The notes: generated from the letters alone by a model not told the origin. DNA of 64,000 bases from Escherichia phage Elenatom (PP925844.1); one strand, 5' to 3'. Shown: positions 45,938 through 50,273, numbered from the stretch's first letter. Numbers and translations: made by a program.

Positions 45938-46327
45938 TTAATCCAAAATATTATTAGGCATTGGTTGAACACTCACAAGTTCTTTAAAGAACTCAGTAGA
46001 GTCAGGCAATTTAACCATTTCCGGAGCATGCTTACTGAATTTATGTTTACATTGACGGCATTTATATTCAAGCTCTGGTTTACGCCAGTTAATCAACTGA
46101 ACTTGTTCAGTACCGCATTCAGGGCAATTAGGAACGTTTTTAGAAGCTCTTTCACGTCGTTCAACCATAGCCATAATAGCATCCCATGCTGGAGGTTTAA
46201 AATCTAAATCGTCGCAGCCGTGAATCTTTCCACGCATTTCCATATCATCTTCCTCACCAGCCATAATAATTTTAATTAAACTGGAATTACTTGAAGCTGC
46301 AATGTCTTCTAATAAACGCTTTTTCAT
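45938..46327 (-). CDS. zinc-ribbon protein
   Basis: 129 aa; CPECG...CRQCKH. Confidence 0.5.
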
Positions 46328-47253
46328 TTCAATACCTCAATAGCATTACGTAAACCATTTGCTTTTGCATTAAGAGCTTTTAACAATTTGGTGTGTTCTG
46401 CAATTTGGGCTTCAACTTCAATCAAACGGGCATTGAGATATTCACGTTCTTCACTCAGATTATCAACCTTTTCTACTTTAGGCTCTTTTACAACTGTCTT
46501 ATATGTATTAGGGTTCTTCAGTTTAATTAGAATGCGTGAACTGTATAACATTGAACCATTATCTTCGGTTTCGTCATACATTTCCACTACGTCCATAATT
46601 TTTAACATCATGCGGAGTTTATAAGACAACGAACGAATAGTTTTGTTGTGCTTATTAATTTCTTTAGCTGTCATGGTGCCAAGATTACGTGAGTAATAAT
46701 AAGGAACCTGGATATTAATTAATACTGATGAACCACCTGGCTTGTGTGTTACTTCATCAGCAATAACCCAGTCCTTAACATGAACTGTATTTGTACGGTC
46801 ATCGCCCGCGGTAAATAGTTTGCGAGCATGCTTAAAAAGCATATTCACTTGGTCATTGAATTGACAAGCAAATTTATCAGCAAATTTAGTTTCAGGAATG
46901 GTAGATAACCAATCAGCCAAATGGGTCTTTTTAACATCGTTAACAATAGTAAATTGAACCAAATCGGTTATAGATGTCGCAGATTTAATGAAGCTCGGCT
47001 TCATAAAGTTTTTAATGTTCTCATGAGCTACAGTAGAAGATAACATACGAGAACGTTTAAACCATTCAAGCAAATTGCCTAACGAATGAGAATAAGCGTT
47101 TTGAGTATCTTTACAGATATGATTTTCCTGACCAACATATTGAAGGAAATCACGAAGAATATTATTGATTACTGCTCTGTGCCCGATCTGATAATTACGG
47201 CGTTTAGTAATAAGGCTGTCAAAATAATCAATATAATGTTTACGAGTTTTCAT
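46324..47253 (-). CDS. hypothetical protein with C-terminal coiled coil
   Basis: 309 aa. Confidence 0.5.
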   Translation of the reverse strand: MKTRKHYIDYFDSLITKRRNYQIGHRAVINNILRDFLQYVGQENHICKDTQNAYSHSLGNLLEWFKRSRMLSSTVAHENIKNFMKPSFIKSATSITDLVQFTIVNDVKKTHLADWLSTIPETKFADKFACQFNDQVNMLFKHARKLFTAGDDRTNTVHVKDWVIADEVTHKPGGSSVLINIQVPYYYSRNLGTMTAKEINKHNKTIRSLSYKLRMMLKIMDVVEMYDETEDNGSMLYSSRILIKLKNPNTYKTVVKEPKVEKVDNLSEEREYLNARLIEVEAQIAEHTKLLKALNAKANGLRNAIEVLK

Positions 47254-47327
47254 GTTCTTCTCACTTGGTTAATGATTTGATATATTCGTTACGAGTCATA
47301 ATAATCTCCTCAGTAGAAAGTAAAAAC

Positions 47328-47357
47328 ATTATACCACATCCTTGTGGCAAAGTAAAC
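47328..47357 (-). promoter_or_regulatory. sigma70-type early promoter
   Basis: minus strand GTTTAC-N18-TATAAT; nearly identical to the promoter at 2429-2458. Confidence 0.55.
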
Positions 47358-48379
47358 TAGTTCAGTGCATTTAGTGCATTGTTCAGTTTAGAACGTTGCT
47401 TTGTCAGATTTTGAACCCTTGACTGAGCTTGTTCTAACGCCTTTTCAGCTTCTAGCACTTCATTGGTCGCTTTAACGAGTTCATCATCTACTGCCTTAAG
47501 AGACTTCTCAATCGCGTCAGCGTGCCATTTTTCTACAGGTTTAAAATTTGAATTTTCAGTAGGAAGAAAACTCACTTTATTAAGTTTACATGCATCTATA
47601 TTGCTTGAGCTATACATCCAAAATTTAGGATCGTTTGATGAGTAATTGGATAAATTTAAGATATCTTGCACTTCCTGCTTTTTCTCTTGCGGGACTTCGT
47701 CCTTTCTCAAAAAATCGTATTTAAATGAAACGATCATATCAAGTTCATATGTTGTTGTATGTTCCCAATTTCGCTCAAAACGAGGTAAAATCTTAGATTG
47801 AACAGCAGCAACAACATCCATATACTTAAATGCTTCTGTCAGCTGTGATTTAAGACATTCACAAATTGAAAGAGAATTTTTAGTATTAGGCTTAAAGCTA
47901 ATTCGTGCAGTTCTATTATTTTCTTTTAACGGTCTTACTTCCATCTGAAGAGTATAACCATCAAATTTCAGGTTCTTTAAGTTAATGTCAGAACCTTTTA
48001 ATCGACTAGCCGTCGACAAAATTTGCTTTAATTGTCTACGGAACAGAGCAATAAATCTCCATTCAATGCGATAATGATTTGGATTGAAAAATCCAGATGA
48101 TAAATCGACCTTACTCTGACCAACACCTTGAACAAATAGAGGATTTTTATAATCAATAGTTTTACAGAAATCGGTGAGCTGTTCACGAGCAGTCATTTGT
48201 GTAATATACCCAGCTTCATTAAAATTACGCACCCATTCGCTGCTATTCGTATACTTAAAGTGATGAATAACACGATTAACTTTATCAGGGTCTAAATTAT
48301 TTTCACACAAAAATGTCATAACATCACGAGTATAACTGGCATTACGAACCATATCTTCAATTTGAGAACGAGTTTTCAT
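47357..48379 (-). CDS. hypothetical protein with C-terminal coiled coil
   Basis: 340 aa. Confidence 0.5.
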   Translation of the reverse strand: MKTRSQIEDMVRNASYTRDVMTFLCENNLDPDKVNRVIHHFKYTNSSEWVRNFNEAGYITQMTAREQLTDFCKTIDYKNPLFVQGVGQSKVDLSSGFFNPNHYRIEWRFIALFRRQLKQILSTASRLKGSDINLKNLKFDGYTLQMEVRPLKENNRTARISFKPNTKNSLSICECLKSQLTEAFKYMDVVAAVQSKILPRFERNWEHTTTYELDMIVSFKYDFLRKDEVPQEKKQEVQDILNLSNYSSNDPKFWMYSSSNIDACKLNKVSFLPTENSNFKPVEKWHADAIEKSLKAVDDELVKATNEVLEAEKALEQAQSRVQNLTKQRSKLNNALNALN

Positions 48380-48387
48380 GGTGTTCC

Positions 48388-49296
48388 TTAAGATTTAAGT
48401 AAATCAACAATTTTAATTAACTTTTCACGCTCAGATTTAGCTTTACTACTCAATCCAGATAGTCTGAAAATTTCATCATCATATTGCTGAATAGAAATAT
48501 TTAGCTCTTCAATCTGCTTATTAAAATAATCAATTTGTTCAGAATGTTTTTCATTACTACGAACTGGTACAGGTTTCGTAGGCAATTTAGTTGAACTGGA
48601 TTCATCCGGGCGATAAATTAAAATACAACTTGAACCAATAGGGCATTTAGCACCAGATGAATATTCCAGTGTTCCAGCTTCTTTTAAAACTTCAAAAGCT
48701 AAACAGAGATGATGTCCCATATTAACATAATCTGTAGAGCGAGCTCTGATGTAATAATCATCTCCACGAGTACTAAATTTAAAGCATTTAAGGTCTTCTG
48801 TATTATTGGTCTTAAAAATCATTTGTTTATCTAGACCTTTAGCTAATCGAGCGCCTAATGCTAATAATCGTCGTTGATTTTCCCACAAATCCGCAATCAT
48901 TTGGTCAAATGATAATTTCGGCATTAGTCGACCATAAAGGTCATATCCTTTATTATAATTGCGAAGAATTTCACTTGCATTAATACGAGACAACGCTCCA
49001 ATTTTATTAAGGGCTTTCATGATGCGATTAGATAAACCCATTCCAGATCCGTTTGTTCGTTGCAAATGTTTATCTAATCCAAACCCAATATCAACTTTAA
49101 ATTTATCTAAAATTTCAGCATGAACATCTCTGTCAATAACATTCAAATCCAAAGTTGGGTTAAATCTATGAAAAAATTTATCTGGCTCTCCACGACGAAG
49201 TACAGTCCATTCATTTAATTTTTTATTAACTAAAGATTTAATTACTGCATTGACATTATTAATTACTACTGACATATTTTCCTCACTCAATTTCAA
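48388..49296 (-). CDS. hypothetical protein with C-terminal coiled coil
   Basis: 302 aa. Confidence 0.5.
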   Translation of the reverse strand: MKLSEENMSVVINNVNAVIKSLVNKKLNEWTVLRRGEPDKFFHRFNPTLDLNVIDRDVHAEILDKFKVDIGFGLDKHLQRTNGSGMGLSNRIMKALNKIGALSRINASEILRNYNKGYDLYGRLMPKLSFDQMIADLWENQRRLLALGARLAKGLDKQMIFKTNNTEDLKCFKFSTRGDDYYIRARSTDYVNMGHHLCLAFEVLKEAGTLEYSSGAKCPIGSSCILIYRPDESSSTKLPTKPVPVRSNEKHSEQIDYFNKQIEELNISIQQYDDEIFRLSGLSSKAKSEREKLIKIVDLLKS

Positions 49297-49690
49297 TTTT
49301 ACTAAATACGCAGAATATGATGGAAAAGACTATATAAGCACCACACACAGATTGAACTAATACCATTCCAAAGAACCAAACAATATTATCAAACAATGTC
49401 TGTTTTACGTCGAAAGGACGTAAACTTACAGTAATATTATCACCTTTTTCTATTGAAGAATACATCTCCGGTGAAATATATTCGCTAAATCTATAACCAT
49501 CTTTGAGTTCATATACGGCAATAAACGATAAACTAGACCCTTTTCCTTGTGTTCCTGTAATGGTATTAACTACAGTAACATCATAATCTTTATAATGCAT
49601 ATAATCATTAATTGCGTAATAACCATATGCAATTACTACACATAAACAACATATCAATAAATTCAATCTTTTAATTATCAACTGTTTCAT
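49283..49690 (-). CDS. membrane protein
   Basis: 135 aa; N- and C-terminal hydrophobic segments. Confidence 0.5.
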   Translation of the reverse strand: MKQLIIKRLNLLICCLCVVIAYGYYAINDYMHYKDYDVTVVNTITGTQGKGSSLSFIAVYELKDGYRFSEYISPEMYSSIEKGDNITVSLRPFDVKQTLFDNIVWFFGMVLVQSVCGAYIVFSIIFCVFSKIEIE

Positions 49691-49745
49691 AATAATCTCA
49701 ATTAAAAGGGCTTAGAACCATTATACCATCCTTGGTATAAAGCGG

Positions 49746-50273
49746 TTATGCGAGTACCGTCTTTAACCGTTCTTCAAACTTCCGAAGAGTATTTTGGCGT
49801 TCAGCTCTTTGCTTTTTGTAAGTTTCAATACGCTCTGAAATGAGAGTGTATCGTTCATTTACTGATTCTTTCATAAAATCAGGAATTTCACGAGAAGCTT
49901 TAATCTCGTCAAATTTATCAATAACAGCTTGCTCTTCAGCAATTAAGTTATCATACATTAAAATATCTTTCTTGATAAACTCAATATCTTCTTGAGTTAC
50001 ACGAGATAATTTAGATGCTTTATCCTTTTTGTACTGTTCGTTAGTATCACGAGACCAGTGTAATGTACGATTTTTATTCGTATTTTTGTAAATTTCTACA
50101 ATACCGATCTCATCGATAATAACGATCCAATTCCAACGGGATTTGTAAATTTGTCCTCCATCAACAGTGATTTCACCTCCGATTGAGATGTCATTAAAGA
50201 ACTTGCTTTGCGCTTCAGATTTAAATTTACCATCGTTGTAATTTACTAAGTTGAAAATATCTTTAGCGTTCAT
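49746..50273 (-). CDS. hypothetical protein with C-terminal coiled coil
   Basis: 175 aa; GGAGG Shine-Dalgarno. Confidence 0.5.
   Translation of the reverse strand: MNAKDIFNLVNYNDGKFKSEAQSKFFNDISIGGEITVDGGQIYKSRWNWIVIIDEIGIVEIYKNTNKNRTLHWSRDTNEQYKKDKASKLSRVTQEDIEFIKKDILMYDNLIAEEQAVIDKFDEIKASREIPDFMKESVNERYTLISERIETYKKQRAERQNTLRKFEERLKTVLA

Follow-up and report, generated by a model that had tools for sequence, protein, structure and literature searches.

The DNA considered here is a stretch of 64,000 nucleotides from Escherichia phage Elenatom (PP925844.1), hereafter the window. It belongs to a T4-like phage of the genus Tequatrovirus, and the subject of this report is a 3.95-kb part of it, at positions 46324-50273, in which several proteins end in heptad-like helices rich in Lys, Glu and Leu. 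This part matches several hundred T-even genomes with 80-99% identity and corresponds to nrdC.3-nrdC.8, a block of accessory genes that are early and non-essential. Five open reading frames (ORFs), all on the minus strand, make up the block; their names are those of the annotated relatives T4 and RB3.

46324..47253, minus strand: nrdC.3, 309 aa; phrog_1435 (E 3e-115), Pfam PF26897; belongs to the NrdC.3/NrdC.4 branch and is named nrdC.3 in RB3 and T4
47357..48379, minus strand: nrdC.5, 340 aa; Pfam DUF7235 (PF23882), phrog_2351; ortholog of the T4 anti-Dsr1 factor
48388..49275, minus strand: nrdC.6, 295 aa from the ATG at 49275; Pfam PF26899 (Phage_T4_Y05B), phrog_2257
49283..49690, minus strand: nrdC.7, 135 aa; "predicted membrane protein" in the T4 and RB3 annotation; phrog_2547; not a member of the family described below
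49746..50273, minus strand: nrdC.8, 175 aa; phrog_2274; an unrelated small protein

An earlier note, made from the DNA sequence, had described four ORFs in a row, of 309, 340, 302 and 175 aa. Their positions and lengths were correct, and all four are on the minus strand. The four ORFs are not contiguous, however, as nrdC.7 is interposed between the third and the fourth. The length of 302 aa is that of nrdC.6 when read from a TTG start, which extends the ORF to 49296; homologs start at the ATG. NrdC.5 matches PF23882 over its full length (residues 1-340; E 3.5e-121, 404.8 bits against a cut-off of 30). In T4 and RB3, nrdC.4 (333 aa) sits between nrdC.3 and nrdC.5, and this gene is missing from the window. 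Identity to the T4 counterparts is 60.9% for NrdC.3, 93.8% for NrdC.5 and 98.9% for NrdC.8, with NrdC.5, NrdC.6 and NrdC.8 in the range of 94-99%.

Relatedness of bodies and tails

Profile comparisons indicate that NrdC.3, NrdC.4, NrdC.5 and NrdC.6 are full-length, diverged tandem paralogs of one family, related in their bodies as well as in their C-terminal tails. To compare them, broad family alignments were built from 16 related loci and aligned locally with hhalign. A bridging profile was provided by remote metagenomic homologs (P0204, P0206 and P0207, the REM group), which had been retrieved when 1.84 billion representative proteins were searched exhaustively with the NrdC.6 profile in HMMER (E 4e-7 to 2e-5). 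NrdC.3 and NrdC.4, both of which fall in phrog_1435, align over residues 3-258 with 85.6% probability in hhalign (E 5.6e-6), and the broad NrdC.3/4 alignment matches that of NrdC.5 with 87.5% probability (E 3.6e-6). The REM profile matches NrdC.6 (98.6%, E 6e-16), NrdC.5 (96.9%, E 2e-10, over 245 columns running from residue 48 to the last residue, tail included) and NrdC.3/4 (82.9%, E 9e-6). Controls made with NrdC.10, NrdC.11, a 177-aa family and NrdC.8 did not exceed 1.2%, and the REM profile gave at most 0.2% with four control families. In direct hhalign comparisons of the first, narrow alignments (NrdC.3-NrdC.5, NrdC.3-NrdC.6 and NrdC.5-NrdC.6), nothing significant was found; since the effective sequence number of these alignments was only 1.2-1.5, these negatives were not read as unrelatedness.

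The relationship extends to the bodies taken by themselves. After removal of the last 60-65 residues, the proteins still align collinearly (NrdC.6-REM, E 3.6e-8; NrdC.3/4-NrdC.5, E 1e-4; NrdC.5-REM, E 1.5e-4; NrdC.3/4-REM, E 6e-4), and reversed-template controls gave E values of 0.26 or more. The N-termini of NrdC.3, NrdC.5 and NrdC.6, which the earlier note took to be unrelated, are thus related, the tail-less bodies aligning at E 1e-4 to 4e-8. In addition, NrdC.3, NrdC.4 and NrdC.5 begin alike, with M(K)TR...I.

HMMER scans of the PHROGs served as an independent check and gave the same picture. Here the link is phrog_26858, a 335-aa protein of Kanagawavirus phages, which is matched by members of all three PHROG families with library-wide E values of 6e-5 to 1e-3. 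The match involves the body in the case of NrdC.4 (residues 52-258; E 6e-5 and 1.7e-3) and the tail in the case of NrdC.5 (E 6e-4 to 4e-3). Reciprocally, members of phrog_26858 match phrog_2257 (NrdC.6) and phrog_2351 (NrdC.5), and residues 91-239 of P0207 give a body-to-body match with the NrdC.5 PHROG profile (E 5.5e-5). On these grounds, three Pfam families (PF23882, PF26897 and PF26899) and four PHROGs (2351, 1435, 2257 and 26858) appear to join into a single superfamily. In this analysis, the family was detected only in T4-like phages, and a six-frame hmmsearch of the window revealed no additional member elsewhere.

The tails themselves were located as follows.

46327..46467, minus strand: NrdC.3 tail, residues 263-309; heptad helix, many columns of which are invariant within the family
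47360..47539, minus strand: NrdC.5 tail, residues 281-340; one predicted helix, ending in ...QRSKLNNALNALN
48391..48543, minus strand: NrdC.6 tail, residues 245-295; predicted helix-break-helix, ending in ...EREKLIKIVDLLKS

The 89 minus-strand ORFs of the window were ranked with a crude heptad score, which looks in 28-residue windows for hydrophobic residues at positions a and d and polar ones at b, c, e, f and g. The tails of NrdC.5, NrdC.8, NrdC.3 and NrdC.6 ranked 1, 5, 6 and 8, and in each of these proteins the tail was the highest-scoring segment; nrdC.7 scored low (rank 83). A single unbroken register with hydrophobic a/d positions runs over 45-55 residues of each tail. The a/d hydrophobic excess is significant against composition-preserving shuffles (p <0.0002 for NrdC.5, 0.0002 for NrdC.6, 0.01 for NrdC.3 and 0.02 for NrdC.8), and the tail of RB3 NrdC.4, ending in ...NRLDRLEQALQLIK, is also a heptad helix (p 0.005). 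On these statistics the heptad pattern of the tails is genuine, and the helices that AlphaFold2 predicts for NrdC.5 and NrdC.6 (see below) make it probable that the tails are helical. The earlier note was right on this point, and the two tail sequences that it quoted were correct. In each family, conservation is highest in the tail, but only to a moderate degree. In the NrdC.6 family it is the best-conserved region, including surface residues (DDEIF and ER); in the NrdC.5 tail, several d positions are occupied by alanine.

In pairwise Smith-Waterman and C-terminally anchored comparisons of the tails, some pairs (NrdC.3-NrdC.5 and NrdC.4-NrdC.5) scored significantly against full shuffles. This significance was lost when the shuffles preserved the heptad classes (p 0.12-0.9), and raw pairwise similarity was dropped as evidence. 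Tail-only profiles were more informative: hhalign matched the NrdC.6 tail to the REM group with 97.4% probability (E 1.6e-11), the NrdC.5 tail to the REM group with 93% probability (E 3.5e-7) and the NrdC.3/4 tail to that of NrdC.5 in exact C-terminal register (E 0.001). With the tails reversed, which retains composition and periodicity, E was never below 0.026. Moreover, when tails of every branch are aligned from the right, they end with [QE]-R-x-K-L-x-x-A-[ILV]-x-x-L-[KN], the last d position lying 2-3 residues from the C-terminus. This motif is found in NrdC.3, NrdC.4, NrdC.5, NrdC.6, the Kanagawavirus protein, P0204, P0206 and P0207, in a weaker form without QR in NrdC.3 and NrdC.4. When profiles are compared by way of these bridging sequences, the NrdC.3, NrdC.5 and NrdC.6 tails thus prove to be homologous.

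Structure prediction is consistent with a common architecture. In the AlphaFold2 model of NrdC.6 (mean predicted local distance difference test score, pLDDT, of 77; predicted template modelling score, pTM, of 0.66), a helical N-region is followed by a beta-beta-alpha-beta-beta unit at residues 165-221, a disordered segment at 222-244 and the tail, in which helices 245-271 and 277-294 are separated by a break (272-276) at a mostly conserved Gly. In the model of NrdC.5, residues 281-339 form one 59-residue helix with block-mean pLDDT values of 60-92. Secondary-structure elements occur in the same order in both proteins (N-terminal helices, long helix, beta strands, helix, two beta strands, disordered linker, tail); because the NrdC.5 model is poor, this likeness of the bodies rests on the order of elements and not on superposition. 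The shared build can be described as a helical N-region, closing with a conserved helix of consensus ...L-x-x-[GA]-[AS]-[RK]-L-x-x-G..., a beta-beta-alpha-beta-beta core, a disordered linker rich in Pro, Lys and Glu, and a C-terminal amphipathic heptad helix of 45-60 residues.

Searched with Foldseek against BFVD, the NrdC.6 model retrieved proteins of 304-335 aa from T4-like phages of Acinetobacter, Klebsiella, Enterobacter, Pectobacterium and Yersinia hosts, with a probability of 1.0 and alignment over the whole length. The BFVD matches of the NrdC.5 model had TM-scores of about 0.2 and are a weak hint only. Against the PDB, Foldseek found nothing below E 0.01 for the NrdC.6 model; the matches at E 0.01-0.1, to H-NOX domains and de novo designs, were discarded as noise. 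A search of the PDB sequence set with the three family profiles gave nothing significant (best E 0.2).

NrdC.8, which the earlier note had grouped with the other three, is a separate, highly conserved early protein. With all family profiles, hhalign gave it at most 1.6% probability at full length and at most 4.7% for its tail. Its heptad-like C-terminal 46 residues (49749-49886) have a weaker pattern than the three other tails, depart from the family motif (they end in ...RLKTVLA) and belong to a protein of different length; the resemblance is regarded as generic. The claim that the tails are alike thus stands for NrdC.3, NrdC.5 and NrdC.6 when profiles are compared (E 0.001 to 1.6e-11), and fails for NrdC.8 and for direct pairwise comparison. 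The best Pfam match of NrdC.8 (E 0.095) is under the cut-off, and nothing was found below E 0.13 in the PDB. Its Shine-Dalgarno region was reported to be moderately cleaved by RegB (PMC1702504). A 2026 paper places nrdC.8 among nucleotide reductases (PMC13275509), and many GenBank and UniRef records call all nrdC.x genes (nrdC.2-nrdC.11 homologs) "thioredoxin", apparently carried over from the gene name. None of the nrdC.x proteins matched thioredoxin or reductase families in this analysis.

Turnover of the block

The number of family members varies from one T4-like phage to another. A single copy is found in a distant T4-like metagenomic contig (P0207, between nrdC.9-like and nrdC.2-like genes) and in Kanagawavirus IME523, where the 335-aa protein has the same position relative to nrdC.10/nrdC.11 and nrdC/pin/endonuclease VII. 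Dhakavirus-type loci have three copies, of the NrdC.6, NrdC.5 and NrdC.4 types; T4 and RB3 have four, and the window has three.

Two features mark the place from which nrdC.4 is missing.

47261..47299, minus strand: nrdC.4 remnant, a 12-codon stub (MTRNEYIKSLTK*) matching the first 9 codons of RB3 nrdC.4
47328..47356, minus strand: sigma-70-like promoter match, TTTACT-17-TATAAT with TG; a pattern match only, from a consensus scan

The endpoints of the deletion coincide with an 8-bp direct repeat, AAATCATT, which RB3 has twice, in codons 8-10 of nrdC.4 and 16 nt before the start codon of nrdC.3. By comparison with RB3, nrdC.4 is judged to have been lost from this phage by recombination between the two copies of this repeat, that is, at an 8-bp microhomology. 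The promoter-like site has the same sequence in RB3, where it lies upstream of nrdC.4; in the window, it now lies upstream of the stub and of nrdC.3, and the former nrdC.4 ribosome-binding site also precedes the stub. A promoter and terminator scan of the region gave a number of sites not above that in shuffled sequence. In 26 of the 507 matching phage records (H105-H116 among them, e.g., Salmonella phage Lv5cm, L020), nrdC.3 adjoins nrdC.5 with a junction 49 nt shorter than that of the window; the absence of nrdC.4 thus has at least two different junctions among Tequatroviruses.

Other rearrangements affect the same genes. Phage vB_EcoM_ACG-C40 (L003, 5805-6216) carries an nrdC.5/nrdC.3 deletion fusion and retains only nrdC.6 intact. 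A second such fusion, the metagenomic protein P0056, runs from the middle of NrdC.5 into the C-terminal half of NrdC.3. In one IMG/VR Tequatrovirus contig (L007, 11923-12979), nrdC.4 is split into two ORFs. The nrdC.6 gene of the T4 reference (NC_000866, 10067-10894) encodes 275 aa with a frameshifted tail, ...QIEELIFLFNNMMMKFSDYLD, where other phages have 295 aa and the conserved helix; this frameshift goes back either to a mutation in the laboratory strain or to an error in sequencing. Finally, NrdC.3 occurs among Tequatroviruses in three allele classes, whose identity to the window copy is at least about 93%, about 75% and about 60%; the genomes that carry them are otherwise about 97% identical. 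T2, T4 and T6 carry the 60% class, with flanking genes 94-99% identical. From these identities, the variation of NrdC.3 looks like allele replacement. Taken as a whole, the nrdC.3-nrdC.6 block is a hotspot of deletion and recombination with high turnover.

Two further genes may be mentioned. A conserved protein of 256-259 aa is encoded upstream of the single family member in IME523 (L019, 5250-6020) and in the locus L018 (5994-6773). In IME523, one or two small ORFs separate its gene from the family member, and it has no counterpart in the window; as an additional paralog it was excluded (L018 and IME523, probability at most 1.4%). The nrdC.2 homolog of the window (45938-46327, minus strand) encodes 129 aa against 104 aa in T4 and RB3. 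The two forms differ at the C-terminal end, and the final 19 residues of the window protein weakly match a PHROG labelled hydrolase (E 1.3e-4).

Proposed function and known systems

The role of one member of the family has been studied experimentally. A T4 deletion clone was unable to infect E. coli ECOR17, owing to the sirtuin defence gene dsr1, and plating on MG1655 with dsr1 was recovered when T4 nrdC.5 was expressed from a plasmid (Srikant, Guegler and Laub, eLife 2022; PMC9391042). In the literature on nrdC.3, nrdC.4, nrdC.6, nrdC.8, DUF7235 and anti-DSR1, no functional work beyond that study was found. Paralogy with NrdC.5, an early and non-essential context, the flux in copy number and allele replacement together suggest a counter-defence family with diverging, target-binding bodies. 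The tail would act as a coiled-coil oligomerisation element or as a docking element for a common partner, and the faster-diverging body would carry target specificity. Duplicates would be kept because every copy counters its own host defence, or its own variant of a shared one. Overall, we consider it probable that nrdC.3-nrdC.6 form a duplicated, fast-turnover family of counter-defence paralogs with a conserved and probably oligomerising tail, to which NrdC.8 does not belong. For the heptad helix that the members share, a role in oligomerisation is plausible. A more ambitious version can be put forward tentatively: the block might be an expanding counter-defence array, in which each diverging body hits a different immune protein (Dsr1 being the one known target), the tails form homo- or hetero-oligomers presenting several inhibitor heads, and the gain, loss and allele replacement of copies tune the host range of T-even phages.

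Several observations weigh against the family reading. The counter-defence role is documented for NrdC.5 alone, and there from a single complementation experiment. Direct hhalign comparison of NrdC.5 and NrdC.6 is non-significant even with the broad alignments, so that the link between these two is transitive, through intermediates. The pairwise similarity of the tails is no higher than that of heptad-class-preserving shuffles, and the AlphaFold2 model of NrdC.5 is poor overall (pLDDT 52). As regards the tail, surface positions in NrdC.6 are as strongly conserved as core positions, and the tails could pack on their own domain instead of oligomerising.

The earlier note saw in these genes a shared oligomerisation or targeting module fused to variable domains. 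On such a model, a mobile coiled-coil module would have been fused independently, by domain shuffling, to unrelated N-terminal domains. The silence of the narrow alignments between the bodies of NrdC.3, NrdC.5 and NrdC.6 would agree with such a history, as would the natural chimeras P0056 and ACG-C40, each of which combines a body and a tail from different genes; they indicate that recombination does occur within the block. These chimeras, however, are deletion fusions of neighbouring paralogs and not acquisitions of a module. Furthermore, the tail-less bodies are collinear, with clean reversed controls, PHROG cross-matches fall on body regions (NrdC.4 52-258 and P0207 91-239), NrdC.5 and NrdC.6 have the same order of secondary-structure elements, and NrdC.3, NrdC.4 and NrdC.5 have a common start. 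We therefore regard domain shuffling as very unlikely: of the proposal of a shared module fused to variable domains, the common C-terminal helix is kept, and the unrelated domains give way to proteins that are paralogs from end to end. That the likeness of the tails is merely the generic likeness of Lys/Glu/Leu-rich heptad helices, with no specific relationship or common function, also seems improbable. It fits the pairwise scores and the Pfam matches of the NrdC.5 tail, which are to generic coiled-coil families and below thresholds, and it is correct for NrdC.8: none of the family profiles recognises either the tail or the body of that protein. For the three other proteins, it is opposed by the tail-only profile matches, which the reversed tails did not equal, and by the recurrence, in every branch, of the terminal R-x-K-L-x-x-A-[ILV]-x-x-L-K motif in an identical register from the C-terminus.

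A more serious alternative accepts paralogy and explains the conservation of the tail otherwise, the tail being a docking helix for a common partner, which could be a host protein, a phage protein or the body of the protein itself. The tail is invariant, in the NrdC.6 family, not at the a/d positions alone but at surface positions too (D-D-E-x-F and E-R), a conservation that points to more than a plain homodimer zipper and keeps this alternative alive. The tail of NrdC.6 is, moreover, predicted as helix-break-helix and not as one long rod, in a monomer model that is fairly confident, and the alanines at d positions of the NrdC.5 tail go in the same direction. On the other hand, tethered oligomerisation helices are classically built in this way, with an unbroken register over 6-8 heptads after a disordered linker, and no partner is known. 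On balance, docking is held to be a minority possibility, and the counter-defence family with a probably oligomerising tail remains the preferred reading.

Given the paralogy, nrdC.3, nrdC.4 and nrdC.6 may each encode a counter-defence factor with a different target, and the tail may matter for the activity of NrdC.5. The paralogy also accounts for the presence, absence and allele variation of the block among nearly identical T-even phages, a variation that bears on the prediction of host range for therapeutic phages.

This is not a new system: the genes are long-known T4 ORFs, their families are in databases and one role has been published. The databases hold three Pfam families and three PHROGs, all of unknown function, which are joined here, with phrog_26858. 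What the profile comparisons add is that three or four "hypothetical" T4 genes assigned to separate Pfam and PHROG families are paralogs of the sole characterised member, the anti-Dsr1 protein NrdC.5, and have the conserved tethered heptad helix in common with it. The 340-aa ORF of the window is the ortholog of T4 NrdC.5 (PF23882, phrog_2351), with 93.8% identity. NrdC.3 and NrdC.6, which are ordinary members of PF26897 and PF26899 (PHROGs 1435 and 2257, respectively), are its distant paralogs; anti-Dsr1 activity was shown for T4 NrdC.5 only, and the paralogs are less than 25% identical to it. A functional analogue is DSAD1, the anti-DSR2 protein of SPbeta-like phages, which likewise is a phage protein neutralising a defence-associated sirtuin (PMC10973363, PMC10981675, PMC11087589). 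Its target, however, is DSR2 and not Dsr1, and no relation to NrdC.3, NrdC.5 or NrdC.6 was detected in PDB profile searches or in the Foldseek search with the NrdC.6 model. In its genomic behaviour, the block resembles other accessory-gene blocks of T-even phages with counter-defence genes, for example the dmd-tifA-adfA anti-toxin island (PMC9391042); such blocks are likewise early, non-essential, deletion-prone and of a content that varies between close relatives. They are made of unrelated small genes, whereas the nrdC.3-nrdC.6 block consists of tandem paralogs of one family.

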